The position numbers and the translations under genes were made by a program. 64,000 nucleotides of DNA from Nitrospirota bacterium (GTDB lineage: Bacteria; Nitrospirota; JACRHJ01), in contig CAVTDB010000008.1 in assembly GCA_963733375.1 (NCBI GenBank), positions 1 to 64,000 of the forward strand. Reading direction: 5' to 3'. The notes beneath the pieces are model-generated. The model searched no databases, was not told the origin of the DNA, and was given only the letters and a program-made list of their open reading frames with translations. Positions 5,295 through 53,932 of this stretch are shown piece by piece; within the stretch, counting starts at the first letter, position 1; each line of letters begins with the position of its first letter.

Positions 5295-5334
5295 GGTTAT
5301 TCGCAATTCTTCCTGAAAAAATTTATGGAATAAA

Positions 5335-10396: not shown

Positions 10397-10426
10397 CCCC
10401 TGCCCCTCTCCCCGAGGGCGAGGGGT
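10390..10426. repeat. family B REP-like hairpin at uvrC start
   Basis: CCCTCACCCCCTGCCCCTCTCCCCGAGGGCGAGGGG. Confidence 0.75.
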
Positions 10427-10440
10427 TAAGGAGGAAATTT

Positions 10441-11176
10441 TTAATATTCCACGTGCACCAGGTAAAGCCCCTGGCCCGGCGCGGTAGGGCCGGCCTTCGT
10501 GCGGTCACGAGCTTCCAGCATATCCTTCACGTCGCCGGACGCGAAGCGGCCTTTGCCCACCTCCACCAGGGTCCCCACCACCGTCCGGACCATGTGCCGC
10601 AGGAACCCGCTCGCTTCGAGTGAAAAGAATATCCTGTTCCCGTCCAGTTGTATCTCCAGCATGCGCAGAGTCCTGACGGGGTTCACGCCGTCGCTGTGGA
10701 CCGCGCGGAAGGAAGTGAAATCGTGCTCGCCCAGCAGGTATGCCGCGCCCTCTTTCATCGCCTCAATGTCCAGCGGCATCGGGACGTGCCACGAGTAGTT
10801 CCGCTTGAGCGGGGAGGGGATGTACCGGTTCAGCACGATATATCCGTATTGTTTGCCTTTCGCGGAGTAACGCGCGCTGAATTCTTCCGGCTCCTCCGAC
10901 GCCTCCAGCGCCCGCATCTCCGGCGGCAGGAAATGGTTCAGCGCGCCCAGCCAGGCCTTGGCGTCCATTTCCGCGGCGGTCTTGAAATTCACCACCTGGC
11001 CCAGCGCGTGCACCCCGGCGTCCGTCCTGCCGGATGCGGTTACCCGGAGGTCTTCGCCGGAGATTTTTTTTATCGCCGCTCTCCAATTCGCCCTGGAGTG
11101 TGCGCTGGTCGGGCTGAAACTGCCATCCGGCGAAGCCGGTGCCGTCGTACTCGAGGATCAGTTTGATATTTTTCAT
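10441..11176 (-). CDS. truA: tRNA pseudouridine(38-40) synthase (frameshifted)
   Basis: LEYDGTGFAGWQ, GRTDAGVHALGQV, GEHDFTSFR, GFLRHMVR, AGPTAPGQGLYL. Confidence 0.95.
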
Positions 11177-11233
11177 AGAATATTATTTTACAACAAAGGC
11201 GGGTATTTATTCAATGGTAAGGACGGGATCGAT

Positions 11234-34515: not shown

Positions 34516-35116
34516 TTATTTCCATCTCTTGTATAAATTATTGTCTATTCCCAGCAGGTCCAGCGCCCGCCCGGCCAACTGGTCTATTATATCCTGAATC
34601 GTCTTTGGTTTGTTGTAAAATCCGGGCATGGCGGGGAGGATATGGACGCCCAGGCGGGCAAGTTTCAGCATGTTCTCCAGGTGTATCGCGGAAAGCGGCG
34701 TCTCGCGCGCCATTAACACCAGCGGGCGGCGCTCCTTCAGCATCACGTCCGCCGCGCGTTCGATCAAGTTATTCGCGTATCCGTTTGCGACTCCGGCAAG
34801 GGTCTTCATGGAGCACGGCGCGATTACCATCCCGGCCGTCCCGAAGGAGCCGCTCGCAATCGGCGCATACATGTCGTCTTCGGGATAGAAGCTGAGCAAA
34901 TCTCCCTTGAGCTTCAAGGCGTCCGCGATTATCTTCGCGGCGGCGTTTCCGCTCTCTGCCGGAGATATCCACGCCCGTCTCGTCTTTCATTATAGAGACG
35001 CCTTCGCGGCTGGCGGTGATTATCACTTCATGCCCCGCATCCGCAAGCCCGCGAATCACCGCAAGCCCGTACGCGCTCCCGGAAGCCCCGCTGACGGCAA
35101 CGATATATTTAGACAT
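34516..35116 (-). CDS. ubiX: flavin prenyltransferase UbiX (frameshifted)
   Basis: [34 protein letters not shown]. Confidence 0.93.
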
Positions 35117-36399: not shown

Positions 36400-36605
36400 T
36401 AGCGGTCCTCATGCTCACGATAATTCGAAATGTCCATGCCTTTGAACATCCCCATCAGATTCTTGAGAGGCATCTCAGGGACCATGTGTATAACGCCTTT
36501 TTTAAAGATAAAGATAATTTTCTGCCCGCTTTTTATTCCCGCCTGTTCTCTTATCTCTTTTGGAATAACTATTTGATATTTTGGGGAAACTATGGCCGTG
36601 CTCAT
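36396..36605 (-). CDS. vapB: AbrB/MazE/SpoVT-family antitoxin
   Basis: VSPKYQIVIPKEIREQAGIKSGQ. Confidence 0.9.
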   Translation of the reverse strand: MSTAIVSPKYQIVIPKEIREQAGIKSGQKIIFIFKKGVIHMVPEMPLKNLMGMFKGMDISNYREHEDRY

Positions 36606-36632
36606 TCCGGGGCCTCCTAATTATCATACATT

Positions 36633-36679
36633 TATACTATCGATAGGTATATCGTAATACCAATGAGCTAAAAAGTCAA
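36633..36679 (-). promoter_or_regulatory. TA promoter and palindromic operator
   Basis: TTGACT-17-TACGAT on minus strand; palindrome TATAC-TATCGATAG-GTATA at 36633-36651. Confidence 0.6.
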
Positions 36680-36686
36680 CAGGCTG

Positions 36687-38170
36687 TTACAGCCCCAACT
36701 GCCCCCACTTCTCATCTACCCGCTTTATCACTTCCGGGTCCATCTTTATCTCGTCGGGCCATTCGCGGGTGAAGCCTTCGCCGGGCCATTTCTTCGTGGC
36801 GTCGATGCCCATTTTTGAGCCGTAGCCGAGGATCGGGGCAGGCGTGGTCCAGCACGTCCATCGGGCCGTCCACTAATACCGTGTCGCGCCTCGGGTCCAC
36901 GTGGTTCATCACTTTCCACGCGACCTCGGAGTAGTCGTGCACGTTTACGTCCTCGTCCACCACGATTATGAATTTCGACAGCATCATCATCCCCGTGCCC
37001 CAGATGTTATGCATCACCTTGCGCGCGTGGCCGGGGAAGGTTTTTTTAATTTTCACTATTACGTTATTGTGAAATACTCCTTCGACGGGGAGGTCTATGT
37101 CCAGTATGTCCGGGGCGATCATCTGGAGAAGCGGCAGGAAGATGCGCTCGGTCGCCTTGCCGATGTACGCGTCCTCCTGCGGCGGACGGCCCACGACCGT
37201 CGCGGGATAGATGCAGTCCTTCCTGTGCGTGACGCAGGTGACGTGGAAGACGGGATATAAATCCGCGAGCGAGTAATATCCGGTGTGGTCTCCGAACGGG
37301 CCTTCGACCCTGCGCTCGCCCGGCTCGACATATCCTTCCAGGACTATCTCCGCATGCGCCGGGACGCGGATATCCACCGTCTTGCACTGCACGACTTCCA
37401 GCGCCTCCTTCCGGAGGAAACCGGCGAACATATACTCGCCCACTATCGGCGGCAGGGGGGCGGTGGACGCATAAATCGTGGCCGGGTCCGCGCCGATGGC
37501 GACCGCGACCTCCATCCGCTTGCCCGCGCCCTCGTAATGCGCATAATGGCGCGCGCCGTCTTTGTGCTTGTGCCAGTGCATGCCCGTGGTGTTTTTGTCG
37601 AAGACCTGGACGCGGTACATGCCGAGGTTCGTGATCCCGGTCACCGGGTCCACCGTCGCCACCATCGGAAGCGTGACGAACGGGCCGCCGTCGCCGGGCC
37701 AGCAGGTAAGGACCGGGAACTTAGTTAAATCAACCTCGTCGCCCGTGAGCACGACTTCCTGGCACGGGGCCTTTTTCACGGTCTTCGGGAAATATGAAGA
37801 AATCTCGTTTAATTTCGGCAGGACGGAGAGCTTTTCCATGAACCCCGCGCCGGGGCCGGGGAATAGCTGGGTCGGGTCCGCCACGGCCTTTACGCGCACG
37901 CCTATCTCATCCAAGTTAGTAACCCCGAGCCCTAACGCCATGCGCTCCATGGAGCCAAGCGCGTTGGTCAGGACGGGGATCATTCGTCCCCTTTACGTTC
38001 TCGAAGAGCAGGGCGGTGTTTTTAGCCCCTTTTTCCTTGGAAACACGGTCGGTTATCTCCGTTATCTCAAGGTACGGGTCAACTTCCGCCTTAATCCGCC
38101 GGAGCAGGCCGCGGGATTCCAGGGCCGTGATAAACTCGCGCAGGTCTTTATATGCCAAAAAAGCCTCCAA
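36687..38170 (-). CDS. ubiD: UbiD-family decarboxylase (menaquinone futalosine-pathway type; frameshifted)
   Basis: [42 protein letters not shown]. Confidence 0.93.
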
Positions 38171-38229
38171 TTATTGGTCAAGAGGAGGAATTTCCTCCGG
38201 ATGCTCACTTAAAGCGCCTATCTCGCGCG

Positions 38230-38258
38230 AATATAAAGGAAAATACGAGGAAAGTCAA
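38230..38258 (-). promoter_or_regulatory. sigma70 promoter of ubiD operon
   Basis: TTGACT-17-TATATT on minus strand. Confidence 0.6.
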
Positions 38259-38279
38259 GAAAGTACCGCCCGAAACTCC

Positions 38280-38308
38280 TTGACACGAACCGGTGCTGAT
38301 AATATAAT
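38280..38308 (+). promoter_or_regulatory. perfect consensus sigma70 promoter of the lipid/polyketide cluster
   Basis: TTGACA-17-TATAAT. Confidence 0.8.
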
Positions 38309-38345
38309 CAAACCCTCCTGAAACCGGTTTTTTTCGCCTTTAATA

Positions 38346-39576
38346 ATGAGCAGGTGCATGGGCAGGGAAAGAAGAGCGGCCGTAGTCGGGCTGGGTGTGG
38401 TAAGCGCACTCGGAATGACGGTAATAGAGTTCTGGGATGGGCTTACCTCCGGGCGCTGCGGAATAGGGCCGGTCGACCTGTTCGACACCTCCTCGTACCG
38501 CACCAGCATCGGCGCGCAGGTCAAGGGCCTGGACCCGTCTATGCCATTTCACTCAAAGAGAGCTTAAAAGGATGTCCCGCTGCGACCAGCTTGGGCTGAT
38601 TGCCGCCAGGGAGGCGGTAAAGGACAGCGGCCTGGACCTTGGGACTATCGCCCCGGAGCGTGTCGGCGTGTGCCTTGGCGGCGGCGCGGGGGGGATGCTC
38701 TCCGGCGAAAAATACCGGCGCGACCTCTACCTTAAATTACGCAAGCCCCGTCCGACCCAGCTCATACCGTTCTCGCCCAGCGTCACCACGGACTACATCG
38801 CGCAGGAATTCGACTGTGAAGGCCCGCGGGCGACGGTCGTCACCGCATGCTCGTCCTCGTCCACTTCGGTTGGATACGCCGCGGACTGGATAAAAAACGG
38901 AGACGCGGACATAGTCATCACGGGCGGCAGCGACGCGATGTGCGAGCTTACTTATGCCGGGTTTAATTCGCTCCGGGCGGTGGACGACAGGCCCTGCCGG
39001 CCCTTCGACGCCGGGAGAAAAGGCCTATCGCTCGGCGAAGGCGCGGGGATACTGGTGCTGGAAGAGATGGGACGGGCGAAGGCGCGCGGGGCCAGGATTT
39101 ATGCCGAGATAGCCGGGTATGGTATAGCGGCAGACGCATATCATATGACCGCGCCCATTGCTTCCGGCGACGGCGCGGCGAGGACGATACTCGCGGCTCT
39201 TGCGGACGCGGGGATTGATACGGACGCCGTCGATTATATCAACGCGCACGGGACCGCGACTAGGTTCAACGATGCGGCGGAGGCGGCGGCGATAAAGAAG
39301 GTGTTCGGCGAGCGTGGGCGCAGCATTCCGGTAAGCTCGATTAAGTCCATGATAGGGCATTGCCTCGGTTCCGCGGGAGGGCTTGAGGCGGTTTCGACGG
39401 TACTCACGGTCTTTTCCGGGATAATACCGCCGACTATAAATTTTGAAAACCATGACCCGCAGTGCGACCTGGACTGCGTGCCCAACGATGCGCGCAAAAT
39501 GGACGTGCGGGCGGCGATATCGAACTCGCTGGCCTTCGGCGGGAACAATACGACAATCGTGGTCAGGAAAGCGTGA
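38346..39576 (+). CDS. beta-ketoacyl-ACP synthase (FabF-like, intact Cys-His-His; frameshift ~38555)
   Basis: VVGLGVVSALG, TACSSS, INAHGTAT, KSMIGHCLG, SNSLAFGGNN. Confidence 0.92.
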
Positions 39577-39615
39577 ATAGGGCCGGGGGCGTTATGAATA
39601 TCTGGCTGGACGTAC

Positions 39616-40842
39616 ATGAATAGAGTCGTAATAACCGGCATAGGCACCGTAAACGCGCTGGGGCTGGACGTCCCTTCTTTTTGGGAAGGCATAAAATCCG
39701 GGCGCTGCGCCATCGGGCGGATTTCAGGCTTCGATACGGCGCCGTTTGGCTCAAAGCTCGGCGCGGAGGTGAAGGGGTTCGAGCCGTCCAGGTTCGTAAA
39801 CCCCATGAAGCTCAGGCGCATGGACAAGCTCTCCCAGATGGCCCTTGTCTCATCCATCGAGGCGATGAAGGATGCGGGCCTGACTGCGGGTATCCTGCCG
39901 CCTGAGCGTATAGGCGTCGTAATCGGGAACGGGTACGGCGGCACTTCCTGCACGGAAGAATTCTTCGAGGGCCTGCTCATGCGCGGGCCGTCCGGGGTGA
40001 ACCCCATGCTCTTTCCCACTACCGTGCCGAATTCCGCGGCGAGCCTGACGTCGATAGAACTGAACCTGAAAGGCCCGAACTGCACGTTCTGCCAGAAAGA
40101 CATATCCGCCGAGGAAGCGGTGATATACGCGGCGGGGCTTATCCGTAAAGGCGCGGCCGATGCCGTAATCGCGGGCGGCGGCGAGGAATTGAACGACGTG
40201 ATATATCATGCGTTCGATTCGCTCGGGATACTCTCGCCCGGCAGAAAAGGCGGCGAAGAGGGCTGTTTTCCGTTCGGACGTATGAGGAACGGGAGGGTCC
40301 TTGGCGAGGGCGCAGGCGTGCTGGTGCTGGAGTCGCTGGAATCCGCAAGCAGACGCGGGGCAAGAATTTATGCGGAGGTCGCGGGCGAGGCGATATTCGG
40401 CGGACGGCCAGGCATAGCGTCCTACGGGAAAGACTTCGCCCCCGCGACAAAAGCCATGGGCGCGGCGTTATCTAAAGCGGGCATGTCGGATACCGAGGTC
40501 GATTATATATCTTCTTCCGCGAACTCCACGCCTGAGCTGGACGAACTGGAAGTGAACGCGATAAAGAATTTTTTCGGACAGTCCGCCGTACGCATCCCTA
40601 TAAGCGCGATAAAGCCCATGACCGGCGATTTCGAAGGCATGGGAGGCGTCCGCCTTGTCGCCTCCGTACTGGCGATGGAGAACTCGTTTATCCCGCCGAC
40701 TCTGAACCAGACGGAACCGGAGGAGTGGTTTAACCTGGACTGCGTCCCCGGTAAGGGCAGGGAGAAAGACCTGAAGAACGTGATGCACCTGGCAATCGGC
40801 AACGGCGGCGCGTGCGCATGCATAATACTTAAAAAAGCATGA
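39616..40842 (+). CDS. ketosynthase-like chain-length-factor protein lacking catalytic residues
   Basis: RVVITGIG and LGEGAG retained; QKDISA, SSSANST, GDFEG replace Cys/His/His motifs. Confidence 0.85.
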   Translation: MNRVVITGIGTVNALGLDVPSFWEGIKSGRCAIGRISGFDTAPFGSKLGAEVKGFEPSRFVNPMKLRRMDKLSQMALVSSIEAMKDAGLTAGILPPERIGVVIGNGYGGTSCTEEFFEGLLMRGPSGVNPMLFPTTVPNSAASLTSIELNLKGPNCTFCQKDISAEEAVIYAAGLIRKGAADAVIAGGGEELNDVIYHAFDSLGILSPGRKGGEEGCFPFGRMRNGRVLGEGAGVLVLESLESASRRGARIYAEVAGEAIFGGRPGIASYGKDFAPATKAMGAALSKAGMSDTEVDYISSSANSTPELDELEVNAIKNFFGQSAVRIPISAIKPMTGDFEGMGGVRLVASVLAMENSFIPPTLNQTEPEEWFNLDCVPGKGREKDLKNVMHLAIGNGGACACIILKKA

Positions 40843-42273
40843 AACCTTTTTATGACATAGCCGTAATCGGCGCGGGTATAGGCGGCCTCACGGCCGGCGC
40901 GTTACTTGCGAAGAAGGGTTATTCCGTCGCGGTATTCGAGGCCGGCGACGTACCGGGCGGCTATTGCACCACATTCAGACGGCGCGGCTTTACGTTCGAC
41001 TCCTGCCTGGACGCAGTAAGCGGGTGGGGAGAGGACGGCTGGCTCCGTAAGATATTTCACAAGCTGGGTATTGAAAACCGTGTGGAACTGCTGCGGCTCG
41101 ACCCTCTGCGGGTGGATAATTTCGCCGGAGATATAGTGAACGTGCCGGGGACTATCCCGGAGCTGATAAACCTCCTTTACGGCATAGCGCCAAAAGAAAA
41201 AGAAGGCATATTAAGCCTGCTGGATGCAATGGAGGAAATCTACCGGACCGCGATGGCGACGCCGCCTGAAATGCTTTACACCTGCTCTACGATAAAAGGC
41301 GCGGCCGGGAAATACAGGGGAAGGTCATATAAAGAGCTTCTCGATGAATTTATAAAAGACCCGAAGGCGAGAGCGGTGATGTGCGACAGATGCGCTTTTC
41401 TGGGCCTTCCGCCGTCGAAGGTATCCGCAATCGCCATGACCATAATGTTCATGACATATGCCGTGGGCGGCGGCTACAGGATAAAAGGCGGAGCAGGCAA
41501 CCTGACGGCCGCGCTCGCGGGGGCGCTTCGGGAAAATGGCGGAGAGCTGCACGTGAAGGCGCCGGTTTCCAAAATCCTGACGGACGGCGGGAGGGCATGC
41601 GGCGTGGCGGTTCCGGGATGCGAAGTCCGGGCGAATGCGGTAATATCGGCGGCGGACGCGGCTGAGGCTTGCAGGATGGCCGGTATCGATATCGAAACGA
41701 GAACACCGTCGATAAGTTTCTTTATGGTTTATCTGGGCCTGAAGGATGCGCCGCCTGTCCCTGACAGCATGGGGTATTATCCCGGATATGATATAGAGGC
41801 CACTTTTGGCGACGTGGCGCATGATATAGCCTCGCCGAACGCCTCGCTTGAAATAATAAATTACTCCGGCCTGAGCCCGGAAATGGCGCCGGAGGGCCAT
41901 GCGTCCGTAATGCTGATGTCGAAGGCGAAGTATGTATATTCGATGCCGTGGAAGAAGTGCAAATACCGTGAGTCGGAGAAGCTGATTGCGCTTGCGGAGC
42001 GGGCGGTCCCAGGGCTTAAGGGATTCGATAATATTTAAGGAACCGGCGACGCCGCCGACACTGGAAAGATATACCGGCAACTCGCTCGGCGCGGCGTTTG
42101 GCTGGGAACAGGACGTGCGCAATGCAAGGACTTCTTCCCGCCCGCGCCTGCCGGGGCTGTATTTCGCCGGGCACTGGACATATCCGGGAGGCGGCATAGA
42201 ATCGGTCGCGGCCTCCGGCCTCGCGGCGGCGGAGGGCGCGGCGGCCTGGATAAATAAAGAGGCGTTCAATTGA
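40839..42273 (+). CDS. phytoene-desaturase-family FAD oxidoreductase (frameshift ~42030)
   Basis: VIGAGIGGL, PGGYCTTFRRRGFTFD, TPPTLERYTGN, LYFAGHWTYPGGG. Confidence 0.88.
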
Positions 42274-42698
42274 AATTCCATGAGAGTGAAATCCGCGTCC
42301 GTTTCTACGAGGCCGATTCATGGGAGATGGCCTGGCATGGCCATTACGTGGGCTGGTTCGAGGCCGGCCGCATAGGGCTTGCAAAGGAGTTCGACCTGAT
42401 GCCCGCGCGGTTCACGGAGCTTGGGCTTTACGCGCCGGTTATAAGCCTGAAGGTGGATTATAAAGCGATGGGGAAGTTCGACGACCTGATAGTCATTCGA
42501 ACTGCCGTAAAAGTTCCGACAAAGGCCGCGCTCGAATTCATCTACGAGGCCATCAGGAAGGAAGACGGGAAACTTCTGGCAACCGGCGAGACGACACAGG
42601 TGCTGGTGAATAAAAAAGGGGAACTTATATATATAATCCCCGAGCCGCTGAAGTCCCGCGTGGATGAGATGGTAAAATTCTGCAACGGGGAAACATGA
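42270..42698 (+). CDS. hotdog-fold acyl-CoA/ACP thioesterase
   Basis: RVRFYEADSWEMAWHGHYVGWFEAGR. Confidence 0.88.
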   Translation: MKFHESEIRVRFYEADSWEMAWHGHYVGWFEAGRIGLAKEFDLMPARFTELGLYAPVISLKVDYKAMGKFDDLIVIRTAVKVPTKAALEFIYEAIRKEDGKLLATGETTQVLVNKKGELIYIIPEPLKSRVDEMVKFCNGET

Positions 42699-44323
42699 AG
42701 GTACTTTTAGCGGACCCGCCGCATTTAATCTGGGACCTGATGAAGGGATGGGTGCCGAACCCCGCCCTCCTTGCGCTCGGCGCATATCTGGAGCGCGAGT
42801 TCGATACGCGGGTCATGGACTGCACCGTGATGCCCGACCCCTGGAGGGACCTGGAGCGGGAGGTTGCAGAGTTTAAGCCTCAGGTGGTGGGGCTGTGCTG
42901 CATCGGCACGACCTATCTCTACGACTCCCTGAACGCGGCGAAACTCGTGAAGATGGTAAGCCCGGGCACGAAGGTCATCATCGGCGGGACCCATCCGACC
43001 CTTGCGCCGGAAGAGGTCCTGGCGCTTGGGCCGGACGTGGATTTCTGCTGTGTCGGCGAAGGGGAAGAAACACTGGCGGAGTTTGTCCGCGCCGTAAGCG
43101 GCGGAGAAAAAGATTTCTCGAATATAAAAGGGCTTGCCTTCCGCGACGGTTCCCAGGTGATTAAGACACAGGCGCGTCCCTTCATCGAAGACCTGGACTC
43201 GCTCCCGATACCCGCATACCACAGGGTCCCGATGGGAAACCCGCTTTATACGATCGACGTGCTGGGGCCGAAATGCGTGGTCGCCGCATTCTCCCGCGGC
43301 TGCGGGTACAAATGCACCTTCTGCACGGAGACTCTCAGGTGGGGAAACCGCTGGCGTGGGAAATCGGCCTGGAAGATGGTGGAGGAGATCGAACTCCTCC
43401 AGAAAAATTACGGCATCAAGACTTTTCTACTGGGCGACAACGACTTTCTCTGGGACAGGAAACGCAACTTAGAGTATTGCGAGCTGATGGAGAAGAAAGG
43501 CCTCAAGGCGAACCTCTGGGTGCAGGCGAGGCCGGACCATATCCTCCGGGACCGCGAGCTGATACCGAGGCTCAAGAAGATCGGCCTCTTTGAAATACTG
43601 CTGGGGATTGAATCGTTCGACCAGAAGATGGTGGATACCTGGGACAAGCGCGAGGAAATCCAGACCATGATAGAGGCGATCAGCCTGCTAAAAAAGAACG
43701 GCGTCATGGTCATGACCAACCTCATGTTCGGGCATTGGAACGACGACAGGAAAACCATCGACAACCTCGTGACGTCGGCAAAGAAATATTCGGACTTCTT
43801 CGCGCTCTCGATCGCGACGCCTTTCCCCGGTACTCAATTTTATAAAGAGGCGAAGGAACAGGGGAGGATCGAGGAAAACGATTACAGGAAGTTCGACTGG
43901 AACAACCCCGTGATGTCCACGAAACACCTGACGCGTAAAGAGGTCGGAAGGCTTCACGGGCTGGCTTTCGGGAAATTTTACGCAAGGCCCAAGACCCTGT
44001 TCCAGGCGTTATTCTCCACAAACCCTTACATCCGGAAATTATATAAATCGTTTGCGACGTATCTCTTCCGCAAGCTTATAAAGAGGCCGTGGAAACAGCC
44101 CGGGTTCATGCTGTTCGATAACTACCTCCTGAAGCGGGCGGGTAAACTGAAAATGGTGAAGGCGTCGGGCCAGCGGGAGAAGTGCGACATATGCGGCGTC
44201 AAGGTCGGGTTGTATTCCGGATACCGGTGCAGCAACCCTGAGTGCAGGACGCTTTTCTGCCTGGACTGCAACGCCGGAGGATTTTATAAGCAGTGTCCGA
44301 ATTGCGGGAGCACCGCAGCTTAA
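42695..44323 (+). CDS. B12-binding radical SAM enzyme with C-terminal Cys-rich domain
   Basis: GGTHPT..GEGE B12 domain; SRGCGYKCTFC; TPFPGT; 8-Cys tail. Confidence 0.92.
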   Translation: MKVLLADPPHLIWDLMKGWVPNPALLALGAYLEREFDTRVMDCTVMPDPWRDLEREVAEFKPQVVGLCCIGTTYLYDSLNAAKLVKMVSPGTKVIIGGTHPTLAPEEVLALGPDVDFCCVGEGEETLAEFVRAVSGGEKDFSNIKGLAFRDGSQVIKTQARPFIEDLDSLPIPAYHRVPMGNPLYTIDVLGPKCVVAAFSRGCGYKCTFCTETLRWGNRWRGKSAWKMVEEIELLQKNYGIKTFLLGDNDFLWDRKRNLEYCELMEKKGLKANLWVQARPDHILRDRELIPRLKKIGLFEILLGIESFDQKMVDTWDKREEIQTMIEAISLLKKNGVMVMTNLMFGHWNDDRKTIDNLVTSAKKYSDFFALSIATPFPGTQFYKEAKEQGRIEENDYRKFDWNNPVMSTKHLTRKEVGRLHGLAFGKFYARPKTLFQALFSTNPYIRKLYKSFATYLFRKLIKRPWKQPGFMLFDNYLLKRAGKLKMVKASGQREKCDICGVKVGLYSGYRCSNPECRTLFCLDCNAGGFYKQCPNCGSTAA

Positions 44324-44324
44324 A

Positions 44325-44450
44325 GTCGCTACCTTTTTAGTAAAAAGGTAGCACCAAAAACTTTTAAACTGTCCCGCTTTCTTTTGGTTCTTTTCTTTCT
44401 CGAGAGATTTAGCTGTCCAGAGCGATAGCGAAGACGAAAGAAAAGAACGG
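44325..44450. repeat. family A paired element with nested family C unit
   Basis: GCTACCTTTTT..AAAAAGGTAGC; GTTCTTTTCTTTC[...CTGTCCAGAGCGATAGCGAAGAC]GAAAGAAAAGAAC. Confidence 0.85.
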
Positions 44451-44466
44451 TTTTGAGGTTTATACG

Positions 44467-45946
44467 ATGAGAGTTTTATTAGTCGATCCGCCGCATGAGA
44501 TATTCAAGTTCTTCAGGGGCAGGATGCCCTCTCCGTCCCTGACCGCGCTTTCCGCGTATATAGAAAAAGATTTCGAGGTGCGCGTCATCGACTGCACCGT
44601 GCAGGAGCGGCCCTGGGCCGCCCTGGAAGAGGCGGTGCGCGACTTCAAGCCCGCCGTCGTCGGCATTACGGCCATCTCCACTTCTTATATCTACGACGCC
44701 ATGAACGCCGCTTACCTGGTGAAGCTCATCGACCCGTCCGTCATTACAATCGGCGGCGGAGTCCATATGAGCCTTATGCCGGAGGAGACTCTTCAGAAAT
44801 GCCCGAGCATGGACTATATCGTGATTGGCGAGGGAGAGCTTACGTTAATGGAGTTCCTGAAGGCGGCCCAGTCCGGCGAAAAGGATTTCGGCAATATCCC
44901 CGGACTGGCCTTCAGGAAGGACGGCGGCATCCACATCGGAGAGCGGCGCGAGCTTATACCGGACCTGGATACGCTTCCGCTCCCGGCGTATCACCACTTC
45001 CCGATGAACAAATACCTGATGCCGTCGCTCGGCATGGCGACGCATAATTCGATAGTCCTGACCACCGCGCGCGGATGCGAAGGGGTGTGCACGTACTGCA
45101 CGGAGGCGAAACTCTGGCGTAGCACCTGGAGGCCGAAGTCAGCAAAGCGTGTCGTGGAAGAGATGGAGCTGCTTTACAGAAACCACAACAAGTTCAGCTT
45201 CATGTTCGGCGACGATTCCTTCAACTGGAAGCGCGAAAGGGTGGAGGATTTTATCAGGGAACTGGAGAAGAAAAAGCACCCGTGGCATTTCTGGTTCCAG
45301 TCGCGCGCGGAGCATATCGTCCGGGACGCGGACCTGCTGCCGAGGCTTAAGAAGCTTGGGCTGTATATGATATCCATGGGAGTTGAGACCCCGTCCGAGA
45401 ATGCGCTTAAGAACTACCGCAAGAAGCAGACGGCCGACGTCTCCATCCAGGCGATGAAGCTCATCAAGAAGAACGGGCTGCTGCTCATCACGAACATCAT
45501 GTTCGGAGACATCGACGATACGGAAGAAACGCTCCAGCAGACGATAGATTTCGCGAAGCCGTATTCCGACCACTTCGCCATCTGCCTGACGACGCCGCTG
45601 CCCGGTACGGAGTACTGGAAGACGCGCGAAGGAGCAGGGGAGAATAAAGGTCTGGGACTACTCCAAGTATGATATGCTGAACCCGGTGATGGACACGCGC
45701 ACGCTGTCGATTGAGAAAATCGCGGAGATACATCCGAAGTCGATACAGAAGTTCTACTCGCGCTTCCGCGTCTTCTGGGACGCATATTTTTCGCCGAACC
45801 CGTACCTCCGGAAGAACAACAGGTTCTTCGCAAAGATAGCCTGGGAGACGATAACGCACACGCCCTGGGTGCAGAAGAATTACGTGCCGTTCGAGAAGTA
45901 CATGGAAGAGAAGACGGGGAAGGAATTCGAGAGGGTGCATATATGA
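44467..45946 (+). CDS. B12-binding radical SAM enzyme (frameshift ~45625), paralog of preceding gene
   Basis: GGVH..GEGE; ARGCEGVCTYC; TPLPGT. Confidence 0.92.
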
Positions 45947-47294
45947 AGATATTGATTATCTCCCCGGAAGGCCGGCACACGGCGGTCGGGAAAAAATTCA
46001 AGTTTCCGTTTCCGACGGCTGGCGCGCCGATGGTGGCCGCGCTGACGCCCGAGGACTGCGAAGTAAAGATAATCGACGAGATTGTCGAGGACATAAACTT
46101 CGACGAGCCTGCCGACATGGTCGCCATCTCGTCCATGACGCCGATGGCCTCGCGCGCGTACGAGATTTCGGAGGAGTTCAGGAAGCGCGGAGTGGCGACG
46201 GTAATAGGCGGGATACATCCGACGGCGTGTCCGGAAGAGGCGGGAGAGCACGCGGACTCCGTGATAATAGGCGAGGCGGAAGACCTCTGGCCGAAGGCGG
46301 TGGAGGATTTCAGAAACGGCAGGCTCCAGAAATTTTACAAGAAGGATTACCTGCACTCGCTGACGGGACTGCCGAGGCCGCGCTGGGAACTGCTTCGGAA
46401 CGATAAATATTTTCCGATCACGATAGTCGAGACCTCGCGCGGGTGCCCGCACAACTGCGATTTCTGCGCCGTCACGAACTTCTACGGCGGCAAATACCGC
46501 GTGCGCCCGGTGGCGGAAGTGGAGAAGGAAATCCAGTACCTCTACGACAGGCCCGCGCTCACCGGACTGAAGCGGATGTCCACGCCGTACCCGAAGGGGA
46601 TGATATTTTTCGCGGACTCCAACATCACGGCGAACAGGAAATACGCGAAAGAGCTTTTCACGATGCTCGCGAAATACAAAATCCCCTGGCAGAGCTACTC
46701 GACGATTTCCGTCGCGGACGACCCGGAACTTTTGAAGCTCGCGCAGGCATCCAACTGCGTGGGGCTTGCCATCGGATTTCGAGTCGCTCTCCGGCGAAAA
46801 CTTGAAGAAGATAGGCAAGGGATTCAATAAGCCGGAGAAGTACGCCGAGTCGATTACTCAAATTGAAAGACCACGGCATCGGAACGGTGGCGAGCTTCAT
46901 ATTCGGGCTGGACTGGGACGACGTGGGCGTGTTCGAGAGGACGAAGAAATTTATCGACGACAATAAAATCGATTCGTCGTTCTTCCTGATTTCCACCCCT
47001 CTTCCAGGCACGGGATACCGGCAGAGGCTGCTTGACGAAGGCCGGATATTCGACCACAACTGGGACCGCTACGACTGTACGCATGTGGTCTTTCAGCCGA
47101 AGCTGATGACTCCGGAGCAACTGTCCGAGGGCGTATATTGGCTGTGGCGCGAGACGCTGTCGCATAAATCGATCTGGAAGAGGCTTTACGGCGGGCCGCA
47201 GTTCATGTTCTACCTGGGGATGAACTACGCGATGAAGATGCTTGACAAAAAGATTCACCCGGCACGCTCGGAAAATCCGGCGCTCATTAAATAG
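45943..47294 (+). CDS. B12-binding radical SAM enzyme (frameshifted)
   Basis: GGIHPT..GEAE; SRGCPHNCDFC; FIFGLD; TPLPGT. Confidence 0.92.
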
Positions 47295-47307
47295 CGGTTT
47301 CCTTTAA

Positions 47308-47353
47308 TCCCGGTTTTCTTTGGCCGCTTTCTTTTCCCCAAAAGAAAGTGGGA
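47308..47353. repeat. family A palindromic element
   Basis: TTTTCTTTGG-CCGCTTTCTTTT-cccc-AAAAGAAAGTGG. Confidence 0.75.
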
Positions 47354-47359
47354 CTTTAA

Positions 47360-48722
47360 ATGAAAATTTCCATAATATTCCCAAAAAAAGACGGCGACCC
47401 CGGCGCGATGGGCATGACTATGCCTTACGTCCTGCCGCACCTTGGCCGCGCTGTCCCAGCCCCGGCACGAGATAGAACTCGTGAACCTCTTCAAGCAGAA
47501 AGAGGATTACGGCGGAAGGCTCCCGGACCTGGTCGGGATAAGCGTCATGACGCCGATGGCCCAGGAGGCGTACCGGGTCGCCGGCGAGTACAGGAAGCGC
47601 GGGGTGAAGGTGGTCCTTGGCGGTCATCACGTCAGCGCGATGCCGTTCGACGCGAAAGAGCATGCCGATGCGGTGGCGGTGGGCGAGGCGGAGGAGACCT
47701 GGAAAATTATTCTGGACGATGCGGAAAATAATGCGCTGAAAGATTTTTATATAGGCGGGCCGCTTTACGATGAAGGTTATTTCAAAGGCTATAACATCCA
47801 TCATTCGCCGGAGCGGCCCAGCCTCGTTGGACTCCCCCAGCCCAGGCGGGAGCTGCTGAAGAACAGATACTTCTTCGACTGCATAATCACCACGCGCGGC
47901 TGTCCGTACAGGTGCAAGTTCTGCGGCACGTCCAGGTTTTACGGCGGCGTCGTGCGGCACAGGCCGGTAGAGGAAGTGATAAACGAGATCCGCCGGATGG
48001 GCAGGTTCTTTTTGATGGCGGACGACGACATATTCGGCGACATTCCATACCGCCTGAATCTGTATTCGAAGATGAACGGGCTTAAGAGATTCATGCGGTG
48101 GCATGGCGCCGGAGCGGTCTCCGCGGTACTTGAGCGGGACGGCGAAGAGATGGTTAAGCTCGCCGCCAAAAGCGGGCTGGAGACGGTATTTACCGGGCTG
48201 GAATCGGCGGAAGGCGATACGTTGGACGCGCTCGGAATAAACGCGAAGCTCAGGCGGCCGGAAGGCGGGAACCTTGAAAAAATCGCCCTGGCGGTAAAGA
48301 AGGTGCAATCGCTTGGCGTAATGGTCTTCGGGTTTTTTGTCCTGGGTTTCGACACGGACGACAGCCAGAGTTTCGACAGGACGCTGGAGTTCTGCGACAG
48401 GCTGAACGTGCCGCCCATACCGTTTTTGCTCATGCCGCTCCCGGGTACGCCGCTCTGGGACGAGATGAGCGGCAGGCTTATCCCCGGACAAGGCTGGGGG
48501 AAATGGGACGGAGTGCATGCGCTATGCGACCACCCCTCACTTTCGCCGCGCCAACGGGAGGCGCTGCTTTACAAGCTCAGGAAGAGCGCTTATACGTACG
48601 GGAGGATTTTGCGCAGGGTAAAAGGTTTTTCACCTGCCGCCGCCATGAACGGCTTTATGATGCAGGCTGGAATCAGGCGGAGCTTCGAAAGCGACTGGAA
48701 GAGGACTAATGGCGGAATATGA
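47360..48722 (+). CDS. B12-binding radical SAM enzyme (frameshift near 5' end)
   Basis: GGHH..GEAE; TRGCPYRCKFC; FVLGFD; PLPGT. Confidence 0.9.
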
Positions 48723-50214
48723 CGCTGTAATAATAGGCGCGGGAGTTGCCGGCCTCGTGGCCGGGAATTACCTGCTGGATTCCGGGAAGACGGTTTTAAT
48801 CGTCGAGCAGATAAAGTATCCCGGCGGGTGCGCGTGCACGTTCGGGAAGCAGGGGTATAAATTCGACGGCGCCGTACACTGGATAAGCCAGGCGGGCGAA
48901 GGCGGGATAGTAAAATCAATTTTGAAGGAGTTCGGGCTGGACGGGGAAGTGCGGTTCGAGCGGCTTCCGGCGCCGCCGCGGGTATGGTTCCATGACAGAA
49001 AAATCGAGCCTTCCTTCGGCAGGGAAAATATAATCAAATCTTTTTCCGGGGCCTTCCCGGACGAATCAAATAAATTGGATGCATTCTGGAACGAGACGGA
49101 AGAGACCCTTAAACAGCTCTGGCGGCTTGTAAAACGGCAGCCGTCGAAGATGGCGTCATTTGAGAAGCTGCTGTTCAACCTTTCGTTCCCGTTCAAGTTT
49201 AAAAAAATCGCAAAATATCACAAGAAAAAAGCGTCCGACGTTATCGCGGAATATTTCAGGGACGACCGGCTTAGGCTTGCGCTGGAGACGATGGGAATTT
49301 TTCCGGACATATCGTTCGTGCACTATGCGTGGTTTAATTCCGTCGCCCTGGAAGGGGACGCCTATTATCCGGCCGGAGGCATCCGCGCGGTCCCTGACGC
49401 GCTGGCTAACCGTTTCGTCTCCAGGGGCGGAGAGATAAGGTATCGGTGCAAGGCGGAGAAGATTATTTTCACCGATAAAAAAATTTCGGGCGTTATAGCG
49501 AACGGCGAAGAGATATCCGCGAAGGTAGTGGTTTCCGCGTCCGACGCGACGAAGACATTTTTGAGCCTTATCGGCGAAGAAAAACTCCCGGCGGAATTTG
49601 TATCCGGCCTGAAAGAGTGGAAGGTGTCGGAGCCGTTCTTTTATGTGTACCTGGGAGTGAATTCCGATTTGCGCGAAAGAGGCTTCGACGGCTCGCCGAT
49701 ATGGTATATACCGAAAAACATCGACAGGAAATCCCTGCCGATGCTGGGAGGAAAAGCGCTCGGCATTGGGATGCCGTCCCTTCTGGACCGCTCTCTTGCG
49801 CCGGAAGGAAAGAGCGTGGTAATCATCGGCATGGCCGCGTCATGCGCTTTCATGGACGCCTGCCCGGTCCGGGCCGAGGCCGGGGCGAACTACAGGGAGA
49901 ACGAGCATTACAAGGCTGTTAAGGAAAAAGTGGGCGAGTATCTGATAGACCTCGCGGAGGAGGCGATACCCGGCCTTCGGGAAAAGATAGAACTGAAAAT
50001 ATTCGCCACCCCTCACACGTTCGAGCGTTATACCGGGAACCTGCACGGGGCGTCGTCCGGATGGTCTATGGCGGCGGACAAGCAGCATAAGCTGTCCGTG
50101 AAAACGCCCATACCGGGCTTATATCTCGCGGGGCATTGGACGATGAACCCGGGCGGAGTGCCTGCCGCATTCGTGAGCGGGAAACTGGCGGCGGAAGAAA
50201 TTCTGAAACGCTAA
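48709..50214 (+). CDS. phytoene-desaturase-family FAD oxidoreductase
   Basis: IIGAGVAGL, PGGCACTF..GYKFD, TPHTFERYTGN, LYLAGHWT.PGGV. Confidence 0.9.
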   Translation: MAEYDAVIIGAGVAGLVAGNYLLDSGKTVLIVEQIKYPGGCACTFGKQGYKFDGAVHWISQAGEGGIVKSILKEFGLDGEVRFERLPAPPRVWFHDRKIEPSFGRENIIKSFSGAFPDESNKLDAFWNETEETLKQLWRLVKRQPSKMASFEKLLFNLSFPFKFKKIAKYHKKKASDVIAEYFRDDRLRLALETMGIFPDISFVHYAWFNSVALEGDAYYPAGGIRAVPDALANRFVSRGGEIRYRCKAEKIIFTDKKISGVIANGEEISAKVVVSASDATKTFLSLIGEEKLPAEFVSGLKEWKVSEPFFYVYLGVNSDLRERGFDGSPIWYIPKNIDRKSLPMLGGKALGIGMPSLLDRSLAPEGKSVVIIGMAASCAFMDACPVRAEAGANYRENEHYKAVKEKVGEYLIDLAEEAIPGLREKIELKIFATPHTFERYTGNLHGASSGWSMAADKQHKLSVKTPIPGLYLAGHWTMNPGGVPAAFVSGKLAAEEILKR

Positions 50215-50939
50215 ATTATCCGGCTGTCCAGATTGAACGTCTGGCCGCTGACGGAGCTTATGCCCGTCAAATGAAGTATGAAGGAAGCGACCTCGGCGGG
50301 ATTTGAATAGACCTTCAGCAGGCCCTCCGAGAGGGCGTTCGATTTTGCCCGTTCCGATGCGGAATCTCCCATCTCCGTAAGCATATATCCCGGCAGGACG
50401 CAGTTTGACTGTATGCCGTGCGGCGCGAGTTCCATGGCCGCGGCCTTCGTAAGTCCAATCAAAGCGGCCTTGGAAGCCGCATAGGCCGCATGTCCCGCTT
50501 TCCCTTTGACCCCTGTAATCGAGGCGACGTTAATTATATGGCCGGAGGTCTGGCTTATCATAACACGTGAAGCGGCCTTTATCATATTGAACGGCCCCTT
50601 CAGGTTTATCCGCAGAGTTTCGTCGAGCGTTTCGTCCGTCAGGCGCAGGAGCAGGGCTTCATGTGAAACGCCCGCATTGTTTATCAGCGCGTCCAGCCGC
50701 CCCCAGCGGGCCTCCGCCGCATTTACCAGCTTCCCGGCCTCATCAGCAAAGCCTACGTCCGCCTGAAAAACCAGCGCATCGCCGCCCGATGATATTATCT
50801 CTTTCGCAACCGCCTCGGCCTTTGCCTGTGAACTTGAATAATTGACTGCCACGCCCCAGCCCGCGCGTCCAAAAGCGAGGGCAACCTCGCGCCCCAACCC
50901 TCTCGACGCGCCGGTCACTATGACGGCTTTTCGCATCAC
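50211..50939 (-). CDS. fabG: 3-oxoacyl-ACP reductase-like SDR
   Basis: TGASRGLG, NNAG, YAASK. Confidence 0.8.
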   Translation of the reverse strand: MMRKAVIVTGASRGLGREVALAFGRAGWGVAVNYSSSQAKAEAVAKEIISSGGDALVFQADVGFADEAGKLVNAAEARWGRLDALINNAGVSHEALLLRLTDETLDETLRINLKGPFNMIKAASRVMISQTSGHIINVASITGVKGKAGHAAYAASKAALIGLTKAAAMELAPHGIQSNCVLPGYMLTEMGDSASERAKSNALSEGLLKVYSNPAEVASFILHLTGISSVSGQTFNLDSRII

Positions 50940-52057
50940 AGCTTCTCCACAGCACCCAGGAGCGCCTCGATTTCCGAAGGCTCATGCGCAGCCGAAACAG
51001 TGAAGCGGATGCGGCACTGCCCTTCCGGGACCGTCGGCGGCCTGATTGCGGGGGCATAAAAACCCGCGTCCAGGAGCGCGCCCGATAATTTCACCGCCTC
51101 GTCCGCCCCGCCGACGATTACAGGGATTATTGGGGTCCCGCCGCCGGTTACTTTAAAGCCCGATTTTTTTAATCCGTCCCGCAGTAGACGTGCGTTATCA
51201 TGCAGACGCGAGAGCCTCTCCGGGCTCATCTTGCAAAACTCTTAAAGCCGCCGAAGACGCGGCGCATGCGGGAGAGGGGAGGGCGGTGGAAAAAATAAAA
51301 GAGCGGGCGTTATTTATCAGCAGGTCGATTATCTCGGCGTTTGCCTGCGGCAAATGCGCCGTAAGAGCCGAGCGCCTTTCCGAGCGTGCCCATCTGGATA
51401 ACGTCAGGCCCGGCGGACAATCTGAAATGTTCAAATATACCGCGTCCGGTACTTCCTAAAACTCCGGTGGAATGGGCCTCGTCAACCATCAAAAGGGCGT
51501 TATATTCTTCTGCATAGCCGGACAATCTCCGGCAGGGGGGCGATATCCCCGTCCATGCTGAAGACGCCCTCGGTGACGATGAGCCGTTTTTTATAACCTG
51601 ATTTTAAAGAGAGCAGTTTTTTCAGGCCGGCGTGGTCGTTGTGGCCGTAGATATTGACTTCCGCTCCCGATAGCCTGCACCCGTCGATGATGCTTGCGTG
51701 GTTTAAACGGTCGCTGAAAATTATGTCGCCTTCTCTCGCCAGCGCGGGGATTATCCCGGTGTTGGCCAGATAGCCGGAGCCGAAAAGCAGCGACGACCCG
51801 GTTGATTTAAAATCGGCAATCTCTTTGCGCAGGTTTTCGTGGTATCTGGTATGGCCGGAAATGAGAGGCGCGGACCCCGCCCCGAAACCATAATTTTCCG
51901 AGGCCTCTTTCGCGGCGGAGATTACTTCCGGATGCATCGCCAGGCCGAGGTAGTCGTTCGAGCAGAACAACGTGACTTCCCGGCCGTCGATTACGGCGCG
52001 GGTAGGGGAAAGTCTTTTGAAGGTCTTCAAGTAACGCGGGTACTTAAAATTTTGCAA
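50936..52057 (-). CDS. bioF: 8-amino-7-oxononanoate synthase (frameshifted)
   Basis: [41 protein letters not shown]. Confidence 0.93.
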
Positions 52058-52058
52058 T

Positions 52059-52945
52059 TTAATTCGCTCCGCGAAAATGCAGAATTTCCACCGCCCCACT
52101 GACCAGCACCGGCGTCTCCCGCATGTAATCGAGATATTTCTTCATATCGAATTTATCCGCATCCACAAAAAACGCCCGTCCGCCGAATATGCCGCCCGGC
52201 TCTTTTATAGAGGTTATCCTGCAATATCCGCGGGCCAGGGATGCGGCATAACCGGTGGTATAGCGCGGGTCGTCGGAGATGCATAATTCGGCTACCGCGC
52301 CCGGCGCATTCGCTACCTTAGTCGCAAGCGCGAGGGCTTCCCGGAAATGGGATGTAACGCAGTTTAATTCCTTTTCAGCCCGCAAAACTTGAGGAAGCGC
52401 ATTTTGACCCCAGTCCACCGCCCGCGCCCGGATTCCGCGCACACGGTCCGGCTCCAGCCTCTCTCCCGTCCTGGCGTCAATCAGCATCGCCCCGCGCATG
52501 TTCTCTCCGGCAGGCGAAGCGCCGGAGGAAATCTGGTCCAGCGCGCCTCTCGCCGCAATCTCGGAGACGCCCGCCTTCACGAGTTCAAAGACGGCAATAT
52601 CATGGGAAATATTTACGGCTGAATCCACTTGACCTATGGCAGCCGTTCGGGTGACAGCCGTTTGCGGGCCGACGGAGGGCGTTCGGTGGGGATTGTTTAT
52701 TACCGGGAGCGGCTTAAACTTAAAAATCTCTTTCCCCGCCAGGGACGTAACCGTAACCGCTATCTCTTCCGGCGGGCCGTTCTCGTGCGCCATCGCACGC
52801 TTGATAAGCGCCGACGTTACCGCCTCGACTTCATCAGCCGGGGCGATCCTCTCCGCGCCCGATATGTGCCTGCCGCCCCGGGCCGCGCGCATCCTGACGG
52901 AGAGATTTACCTGTCCAGAGCGACAGCGAAAGACAGTTCAGCCAT
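52059..52945 (-). CDS. bioW: 6-carboxyhexanoate--CoA ligase (pimeloyl-CoA synthetase)
   Basis: [40 protein letters not shown]. Confidence 0.9.
52900..52934. repeat. family C repeat unit at 5' end of bioW
   Basis: GAGAGATTTACCTGTCCAGAGCGACAGCGAAAGAC, near-identical to 44402-44435. Confidence 0.85.
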
Positions 52946-53856
52946 GAAGCCGCATCCCCAGGTCTTCTATCATGCGGAGGTCGTCCGCGAAATCCCTGCC
53001 GTTCGTCGTGAGATAATCGCCCATCAAAAGGCCGTTTGCGCCAGCCATGAAAATCATCGGGTGCAACTCGCGCAGCGAGGTCAGCCTTCCGCCGCATACC
53101 CGTATTTCCTTTTCCGGCAGGATGTGCCGGAGCAGGGCGATAGATTTAAGCGCCTCGAAAGGCGTCATGAAATCCGCATTTTCTAAAGGCGTGCCCGGTA
53201 TAGGCATAAGGAAATTGACCGGGACCGAATCTATGCCGAGACGGGCCAGCTGCAGAGGCCATTTCAGCCCGGTCGTTTAAATCCTCGCCCAGGCCAAAAA
53301 TCCCGCCGCTGCAAGTGGACAGCCCCGCATCCTTCGCGGCCAGAAGGGTCTCGACCCGCTCGTCGAACGTATGGGTCGAGCATATCCTTGGGAAAAAATT
53401 TTTCGAGGTTTCCAGGTTGTGGTGATAGCGGTTTAAGCCGGCCTCTTTTAATGTACGGAGCTGGGGAGCCGACAAAGTCCCAAGCGTGGCGCAAGGAAGA
53501 AAGCCCGTTTCCCGGACTCTTTCGACCATACGGGCTATGCTGGAGAGCTCTTTGTCCGAGTTTATCCCCCGGCCGGATGTCACGATGCAGAAACGCCTTA
53601 CGCCTTTTTCAAAGGCCCGGTTCGCCGCCTCCGTGACGGCATCCGCCGGAAGCAGGGGATATGTGTTGACCTGGGTCCCATGATGGGCGGACTGGGCGCA
53701 AAAGGCGCAGTCTTCCGGGCAGTTACCGGAACGGGCGTTGATTATGGAGCATGCGTCGACCAGGCCGCCGAAATTTTTTTCCCGGATGCGCCCGGCCTCC
53801 CGTATAAATTCCCAGGGCTTCTCTTCCAACTCCTTTAAATGATTCTTAATTTGCAT
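52938..53856 (-). CDS. bioB: biotin synthase (frameshift ~53250)
   Basis: NARSGNCPEDCAFCAQS, YHHNLETS, CSGGIFGLGE, RVCGGR, GDYLTT. Confidence 0.95.
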
Positions 53857-53932
53857 TTTTTTTAAATGAGCGTTATCCTATAGTATGAGTTACAATATAA
53901 ACAGAGGATAAGGTTAGACGGGGCGGAGTTTA

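Follow-up and report, generated by a model that had tools for sequence, protein, structure and literature searches.

In the 64,000-nt stretch of Nitrospirota DNA analysed here (hereafter the window; positions 1-64,000 of contig CAVTDB010000008.1, our contig C8, from assembly GCA_963733375.1, which has 2.39 Mb in 26 contigs and is 81% complete), nine genes on the + strand at 38280-50214 form an operon. It encodes a β-ketoacyl synthase (KS), a second KS devoid of the catalytic triad, two oxidoreductases of the phytoene-desaturase (CrtI) family, a thioesterase and four B12-binding radical S-adenosylmethionine (SAM) enzymes. The operon is real, conserved and orphan, and is a variant of a cluster kind that is known but unsolved. 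With a probability of about one half, we consider the operon to be devoted to the oxygen-independent synthesis and tailoring of an unusual acyl chain, and to be a reduced relative of the ladderane-type fatty-acid clusters, likewise orphan, that are found in anammox bacteria and Thermodesulfobacteriota. The product is likely an acyl chain desaturated anaerobically and methylated or cyclised by radical chemistry, the exact structure of which cannot be read from sequence; a ladderane is an unlikely product.

Domain calls were made by Pfam and NCBIfam profile searches with curated cut-offs, and they confirmed content, order and strand of the nine co-oriented genes, in agreement with the initial annotation. 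The sigma-70 type promoter that the annotation had called perfect (TTGACA-17 nt-TATAAT, 38280-38308, + strand) is the sole 12/12 match to the consensus among nine promoter-like sites in 36500-51500, where shuffled sequence gives 7.3 ± 2.5 such sites of any quality. Both hexamers are kept 5' of the first KS gene, with a different spacer, in a locus of the same genus (L091) and in one of another genus, g5 (L001). Start and stop codons overlap, as had also been noted, at five junctions (40839, 42270, 42695, 45943 and 48709). Thus, a single conserved promoter lies ahead of nine translationally coupled genes. That expression is constitutive, as had been proposed, is not readable from a consensus promoter alone. 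Upstream are divergent menaquinone genes of the futalosine type (MqnP-like, UbiX, UbiD-like), and downstream are bioB-bioW-bioF followed by a FabG-like short-chain dehydrogenase/reductase (SDR) gene, all on the minus strand at 50214-53877 and convergent with the operon end. Synteny with L001 extends through this bioB-bioW-bioF/SDR region. Because both flanks are unrelated operons, the operon is bounded to nine genes. A Pfam scan of these nine found no mobility, resistance or exporter domains, as the annotation had stated, and no acyl carrier protein (ACP), dehydratase, reductase or acyltransferase domains.

The first two genes encode KS1 (38358-39576, +; PF00109 and PF02801), which is FabF-like, and KS2 (39616-40842, +), which is homologous to FabF over its full length. 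KS1 possesses the Cys/His/His triad, as read in intact orthologs, and its C-terminal piece scores 378 bits with TIGR03150. KS2 scores 336 bits with the same model, under the cut-off, and has Asp/Ser/Asp at the triad positions in the window and in three of three aligned orthologs (4/4). An active Cys-His-His KS therefore adjoins a full-length triad-less paralog, the arrangement of a KS and its chain-length factor (CLF), and by analogy with the anammox FabF2/FabFmut pair we infer that KS1 and KS2 form a KS/CLF heterodimer. Pairing of an active and a dead KS is also found in the KS-CLF fusion of a Desulfobulbaceae-type cluster (L005), in an anammox-type cluster (G477) and in a further cluster of the window's own genome, on contig C26. 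When compared with the chains of PDB 9s5h, which we take to be the anammox FabF2/FabFmut heterodimer, KS1 and KS2 score no better than against ordinary FabF. Anammox FabF2/FabFmut is described, in the portion available of a 2026 bioRxiv preprint, as a KS/CLF-like heterodimer that decarboxylates malonyl-ACP, and the same portion names Iga11/Iga12 and ActA/ActB as KS/CLF pairs.

The four radical SAM enzymes, rSAM1 (42695-44323, intact), rSAM2 (44467-45946), rSAM3 (45943-47294) and rSAM4 (47360-48722), all on the + strand, match PF02310 and PF04055 above the cut-offs, which corresponds to a predicted class B (cobalamin-binding) architecture. A quick maximum-likelihood tree of 29 sequences, with SH-aLRT support only, separated them into two clades (A and B, 99-100). 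The A-type clade (100) contains rSAM1, rSAM2, the N-terminal half of a fusion protein from Syntrophaceae, one radical SAM enzyme of the Desulfobulbaceae-type clusters and lone Thermodesulfobacteriota genes; the B-type clade (99) contains rSAM3, rSAM4, the C-terminal half of the fusion and two radical SAM enzymes of the Desulfobulbaceae-type clusters. From this placement, the operon radical SAM enzymes are arranged A-A-B-B, as two duplicated pairs. Identity is about 44% between rSAM1 and rSAM2 and about 33-38% between rSAM3 and rSAM4. Three Cys residues of the CxxxCxxC motif are invariant in both A-type alignments (A1 and A2) and in the B-type alignment (A3). Members of TIGR04072 (rSAM_ladder_B12, cut-off 360) form a clade apart from A and B, with a support of 100 on two rows (the member of a Syntrophaceae cluster, L066, and the C26 gene of the window's genome). 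With this model, rSAM2 scores 108.7 bits, rSAM1 86.4, and the available pieces of rSAM3 and rSAM4 45.8 and 42.0.

None of the four reaches any NCBIfam cut-off. The best characterised family for rSAM1 and rSAM2 is BchE (TIGR02026, cut-off 481.35), with 251.6 bits for rSAM1 and 185.0 for rSAM2, and with 48 and 41.6 for the pieces of rSAM3 and rSAM4. rSAM1 and rSAM2 share the B12-binding and radical SAM architecture with BchE, the anaerobic Mg-protoporphyrin cyclase; however, their scores are far under the cut-off, and the context in the window is non-phototrophic and lipid-type. The JGI name 'cyclase' for homologs is probably an over-annotation. The nearest solved structures, AprD4, 9ccb, TokK, CysS and TsrM, are remote. 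A complex prediction for rSAM2 and rSAM3 (alignments A2 and A3) gave a score of 0.00 against a mark of 0.32, which favours neither binding nor non-binding.

CrtI1 (40839-42273, +; PF01593 and PF13450) matches PF01593 at 78.5 bits, above the cut-off, and its truncated piece scores 124.5 with TIGR02734 (cut-off 238.1). CrtI2 (48709-50214, +, intact), of the phytoene-desaturase/carotenoid-isomerase family, matches PF01593 at 104.9 bits over the whole profile; its scores with TIGR02730 (157) and TIGR02734 (128.0) are both under the cut-offs. Judging from these scores, CrtI1 and CrtI2 appear to be members of the fold that lie outside any named carotenoid enzyme family. Between CrtI1 and rSAM1 is the thioesterase gene (42270-42698, +), of the 4HBT/YbgC-type hotdog fold, with 30.2 bits for PF13279 (cut-off 25.5) and 49.8 for TIGR00051 (cut-off 68.7). 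A thioesterase gene adjoins A-type and B-type radical SAM genes in a second Nitrospirota family (f2) and in Syntrophaceae, too.

Homologs of these genes lie in a lipid context in three Desulfobulbaceae-type loci of Thermodesulfobacteriota (L003-L005), in the Syntrophaceae locus L066 and in clusters of genomes with hydrazine synthase (HZS), and this supports the proposed role in acyl-chain synthesis. L003-L005 have a KS-CLF pair, CrtI and A-type and B-type radical SAM genes. One A-type (41-43% identical to rSAM1) and two B-type enzymes (36-42% to rSAM3) are present in this cluster type; KS and CLF are fused into a 776-aa protein, unlike the separate genes of the window. L005, the sole one of the three annotated in full, contains the KS-CLF fusion, the second B-type gene, a TIGR04072 member (391 bits), methyltransferases, a SPASM radical SAM enzyme and a LolA-like gene; all but the first two are additions relative to the window operon, and the thioesterase is lacking. 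L066 encodes CrtI, an LpxL-like acyltransferase, ACP, a FabD-like protein, a thioesterase, FabG and a TIGR04072 member (389 bits), together with a 931-aa protein that appears to be an A-B fusion. The available part of Rattray et al. (2009) reports a cluster type common to Kuenenia and Desulfotalea, and, as far as that part goes, L003-L005 and L066 match it. For the Desulfotalea cluster, the same source gives possibly polyunsaturated hydrocarbons as the product, unproven, and no ladderanes.

For the anammox side, 401 genomes of the phylum to which a Phycisphaerae metagenome-assembled genome (MAG) belongs were searched for TIGR04072, and the HZS alpha domain (HZS_alpha, PF18582) was tested in five hit genomes and found in three. 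In each of these three HZS-positive genomes, a full-length rSAM3 homolog, 45% identical to the ortholog from the same-genus genome G001 that served as query, lies inside a large fatty acid synthesis (FAS) cluster, about 12 kb from the TIGR04072 gene. In two fetched clusters (G477 and G577), tblastn found the B-type (44-45%), KS1-like (39-40%) and CrtI1-like (33-35%) genes together in one cluster. We read this large cluster as being of the Kuste3335-3352 type of Rattray et al. (2009). It shares with the window operon a B-type radical SAM enzyme, an active and a triad-less KS and a CrtI-family enzyme. Pfam matches in the G477 cluster comprise two KS/KS-like pairs, a CrtI-fold enzyme and a number of additions relative to the window: ACP, FabA/Z, FabG, SAM methyltransferases, AMP-ligase, two SPASM radical SAM enzymes, LolA, MMPL and acyltransferases, beside the TIGR04072 gene. 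An A-type gene is absent from it; the best anammox match to the A-type, at 33% identity, is in another part of the genome. The window operon combines two A-type and two B-type genes with a thioesterase and has none of those accessories.

The second anammox counterpart is Cluster I (KustE3603-3608), for which the accessible text of the 2026 preprint lists amxACP, amxFabZ, amxFabF2, amxFabFmut, a phytoene-dehydrogenase homolog and a B12 radical SAM enzyme. To the extent that this text describes it, Cluster I resembles the window operon in having an active and a dead FabF, the latter without Cys-His-His, a phytoene-dehydrogenase-like enzyme and a B12 radical SAM enzyme. The gene order is reversed, the active KS coming first in the window operon; the dead KS has Val or Thr and Asn/Glu/Cys, as against Asp/Ser/Asp in KS2; and the window operon has no dedicated ACP or FabZ and its radical SAM enzymes are not of the TIGR04072 type. 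Matches to PF00550 (ACP) in the window's genome are on contigs C6 and C26 and those to PF07977 (FabA/Z) on C26 and C9, with none in the operon.

The label 'ladderane-like' that the initial annotation had given to the operon therefore holds in part. The KS/dead-KS pair, the CrtI-fold enzyme and the B-type enzyme with 45% identity to the HZS-positive clusters are shared, but a TIGR04072 member (42-109 bits against 360), ACP and FabZ are missing, and a closer match is present on C26. Homology to the anammox and Desulfobulbaceae clusters is real but partial. The source was further described as apparently non-anammox, which accords with one test, the lack of an HZS_alpha match in the 81%-complete genome. 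The TIGR04072 cut-off is exceeded in 22 of the 401 genomes from the phylum of the Phycisphaerae MAG, in 17 of 401 from another phylum, a sample of small genomes and so not counted as anammox relatives, and in 17 of 41 relatives of the window genome. Because the family is this widespread and HZS was found in only three of five tested hit genomes, the ladderane link in its name is too narrow, and TIGR04072 is not anammox-specific.

The pathway may proceed as follows. KS1/KS2 would prime by decarboxylation of malonyl-ACP and fix the chain length to give a defined acyl-ACP, with ACP, FabD, FabG and FabZ drawn from housekeeping genes elsewhere in the genome; a housekeeping FabD-FabG-ACP-FabF locus is present on C6. 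The two CrtI-like enzymes would serve as O2-independent desaturases or isomerases of the chain. Unactivated carbons may then be the targets of the A-type and B-type radical SAM enzymes, which would either methylate them with the help of cobalamin or close C-C rings as BchE does; the duplicated pairs could serve different positions or one round of modification after another. Finally, the thioesterase would free the product acid for incorporation into membrane lipids.

Several observations weigh against this proposal. The operon lacks ACP, ketoreductase, dehydratase, acyltransferase and exporter genes, so that the link to ACP-bound acyl substrates rests on homologs in other genomes. No radical SAM enzyme reaches the cut-off of a characterised family, and methylation, cyclisation and other chemistry are indistinguishable by sequence. 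A-type homologs of about 40% identity adjoin U32-peptidase-like genes, near chorismate and UbiE genes, which is a non-lipid context. A search for A-B fusions among longer proteins returned only an unrelated glycosyltransferase fusion (33% identity) and did not recover the L066 fusion, which therefore rests on one MAG. In the search of sequencing runs no RNA run was listed and the best DNA runs share 0.20-0.28 of the sampled words, and no lipid profile of the lineage was found in the literature consulted.

A more specific form of the proposal is put forward tentatively. The two A/B radical SAM pairs may install several C-C bonds, as rings or cross-links, or methyls on a ketoacyl, non-isoprenoid chain. 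The operon would then be a minimal self-contained pathway for a new class of radical-SAM-modified fatty acids outside anammox bacteria and jawsamycin, and its B-type enzymes would be functional counterparts of the anammox homolog.

The alternative that survives best, an improbable one in our estimate, is a polyene-type secondary metabolite or pigment in the style of aryl polyenes (APE), flexirubin or ishigamide, as opposed to the tail of a bulk membrane lipid. In that case the chain made by KS/CLF would be conjugated, the CrtI-like enzymes would lengthen its conjugated system, and the radical SAM enzymes would add methyl groups. A KS/CLF together with a 4HBT thioesterase is typical of type II polyketide synthase (PKS)-like polyene systems. 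KS1 matches the ishigamide KS (6kxd) at 286 bits, the related Desulfobulbaceae and anammox clusters have LolA-like, MMPL and LpxL-like genes as APE clusters do, and occurrence is limited to 11 of the 401 Nitrospirota genomes sampled. The type II PKS pairs of actinorhodin and ishigamide (Iga11/Iga12) likewise consist of an active KS beside an inactive triad-less paralog. However, for both KS1 and KS2 the scores with canonical FabF exceed those with PKS KS or CLF, and KS2 has Asp at the position of the Cys, where Gln is typical of CLFs. The operon also contains no dedicated ACP, dehydratase or ketoreductase, no ammonia-lyase/CoA-ligase starter genes, and neither LolA nor MMPL, so that the KS/CLF pair and the thioesterase are all that it has of the aryl-polyene/flexirubin set. 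The FabG-like SDR gene adjoins the operon, but it is on the opposite strand and at the end of the bio operon.

Less likely still is an isoprenoid or quinone substrate, such as the side chain of menaquinone or a lipid resembling carotenoids or squalene, for which the KS pair would supply acyl decoration only. CrtI-family enzymes and most characterised lipid radical SAM enzymes act on isoprenoids, according to the part available of a 2026 review; the operon is divergent from the futalosine menaquinone genes, and the Thermodesulfobacteriota A-type homologs beside U32-like genes are near UbiE and chorismate genes. The menaquinone adjacency is lost in L001, however, which has other upstream genes, and all multi-gene relatives of the operon contain KS, ACP and FabG-type genes and no isoprenoid synthases. 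In addition, CrtI1 and CrtI2 are well under the cut-offs of all carotenoid and hopanoid equivalogs in NCBIfam.

True ladderane (concatenated cyclobutane) lipids outside anammox bacteria are very unlikely: gene families are common to the operon and the anammox clusters, but a TIGR04072-type radical SAM gene, amxACP and amxFabZ are not in the operon, the A-type has no close anammox counterpart, the related Desulfotalea cluster is linked, in what is available of the source, to polyunsaturated hydrocarbons and not to ladderanes, and many genomes not shown to be anammox have TIGR04072 too. Supply of pimelate to the adjacent bioB-bioW-bioF was rejected as the main function. BioW requires free pimelate; the adjacent genes are convergent, their adjacency is unseen outside the phylum, and making pimelate does not call for four B12 enzymes.

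Five of the nine genes are broken, at six places, each by +1: KS1 near 38541, CrtI1 near 42020, rSAM2 near 45622-45625, rSAM3 near 46780 and 46859, and rSAM4 near 47442-47444. Frames were checked against the intact orthologs of L001, and contigs from four public metagenome runs, most of them 90-99% alike, were aligned on 38300-50300. At all six sites, contigs of every run covering the site have one base fewer. In KS1 the frame shifts between 38524 and 38561, and the base at 38541 is missing in contigs of three of four runs. The start codon of KS1 is the ATG at 38358, and the open reading frame (ORF) at 38354-38599 is in the wrong frame and has no family match. The frame of CrtI1 shifts at 42013-42017, with one contig lacking the base at 42020. 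The extra base of rSAM2 (45622/45625) is absent in all four runs.

Housekeeping genes of the window are likewise split or truncated, namely those for indolepyruvate oxidoreductase alpha (5317-7334), UvrC (9320-10504), an AmiC-like amidase (11237-12917), NuoM (29469-30992), UbiX (34519-34986) and the UbiD-like protein (36715-37992). All nine operon genes are whole in G001 and in L001, as are eight of nine in genome G002; in G006 (locus L093) the retrieved stretch ends within KS1, and the other eight are full-length. The CrtI1 ortholog is intact (479 aa) in L001, L091 and L092, and that of rSAM2 (492 aa) in G001, G002, G006 and L001. Because housekeeping genes are split alike, same-genus genes are intact and the run contigs lack the extra bases, the six operon frameshifts are assembly errors. 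The split housekeeping genes further imply that one-base indel errors seem frequent across the whole assembly, the gene calls of which need polishing. Six frameshifts within 12 kb might suggest a decaying pseudogene array with real frameshifts, but this is hardly credible, since all six are +1 insertions, the same kind of break affects unrelated housekeeping genes of the window, and the extra bases are absent from the contigs of the four runs wherever covered. The operon, intact in congeners, is under selection.

Orthologs of rSAM1 (at least 80% identity) are present in 8 of 12 genomes of the window's family (f1), the window's own genome counted. Those of rSAM2 (E ≤ 1e-120) were found in 11 of 401 sampled Nitrospirota genomes and are confined to two of 44 families, f1 (8/12) and f2 (3/6). 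On the short contigs of f2, the thioesterase, rSAM2 and rSAM3 genes stand together, and homologs of the KS1-KS2 pair and of CrtI2 are on other contigs. The initial annotation had made its proposal dependent on co-occurrence of these genes in other genomes, and they do occur together in other Nitrospirota and in Thermodesulfobacteriota loci. Related sequences come from metagenomes labelled peat, soil and wetland.

Clusters of the ladderane type in non-anammox phyla are already widely reported; the literature available in part lists antiSMASH 'ladderane' clusters in many such phyla, without a product. The enzymes that build the ladderane rings are still unknown and radical-SAM modification of ketoacyl lipids is almost unexplored, according to the accessible part of the 2026 review. 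The window operon offers a compact comparator for the anammox problem: with one promoter and nine genes it falls far short of the anammox clusters in size, several small Nitrospirota genomes carry it intact, and it has a 45% identical radical SAM enzyme, a KS/dead-KS pair and a CrtI-like enzyme in common with those clusters. If its product were determined, the chemistry of the B-type and the contribution of the A-type enzymes would be revealed, and it would become clear whether the 'ladderane-type' clusters of many anaerobic phyla make a common class of modified lipids. Lipids of this class could also be unrecognised biomarkers in peat and wetland settings. If the operon is indeed a minimal pathway, its nine genes would make the chemistry that underlies ladderane-type lipids tractable in a model.

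Other lipid-type loci are present in the same genome. At 331030-343447 of C26 (L095) are genes for a KS, a triad-less KS, ACP, a PF04199 cyclase, an SRPBCC polyketide cyclase, an FMN-reductase/amidohydrolase, a CrtI-like enzyme, a TIGR04072-like B12 radical SAM enzyme (334 bits), an LpxL-like acyltransferase and another radical SAM enzyme. Of this cluster and the window operon, the former is the nearer to anammox Cluster I in gene content. Two more TIGR04072-type genes are at C9:35149-36513 (L096) and C1:84506-85838 (L097). The C9 gene scores 356 bits and has an internal stop, its congener orthologs scoring 370-377, over the cut-off; the C1 gene is split. One of the two is beside a FabD-like acyltransferase gene and the other beside 2-hydroxyacyl-CoA-dehydratase and activase-type genes, partners as in L066. 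The single cluster of L066 thus seems, from these gene neighbourhoods, to be spread over several loci in the window's genome.

In one f2 genome (G021; L094:7467-9325), genes for an ECF sigma factor, a zf-HC2 anti-sigma factor and a YtfJ-like protein precede the thioesterase-rSAM2-rSAM3 genes. This arrangement hints that in f2 envelope-stress control may take the place of the consensus sigma-70 promoter. In three Thermodesulfobacteriota loci (L008, L011 and L025, around 8600-11500 in each), an A-type homolog of about 40% identity lies directly 3' of a Peptidase_U32-like gene, and some loci of this kind have chorismate mutase, chorismate synthase or UbiE nearby; this conserved pair is unrelated to the lipid clusters.

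In genus g5, an extra 291-aa ORF without a Pfam match lies between rSAM2 and rSAM3 (L001:13144-14016; the same gap is seen in L093). It is absent from the window and from two congeners, and tblastn gave no match to it anywhere in the window's genome. The rSAM1-rSAM2 spacer of the window (44324-44466) carries a dispersed, hairpin-forming repeat with 134 blastn-short hit lines in the genome, the self-match included. At this spacer the summed contig depth in the four metagenome runs is 5- to 10-fold higher, with many different flanks. The repeat looks like a REP- or MITE-like intergenic element, and the spacer is shorter in relatives, about 110 bp in G001 and about 55 bp in L001.

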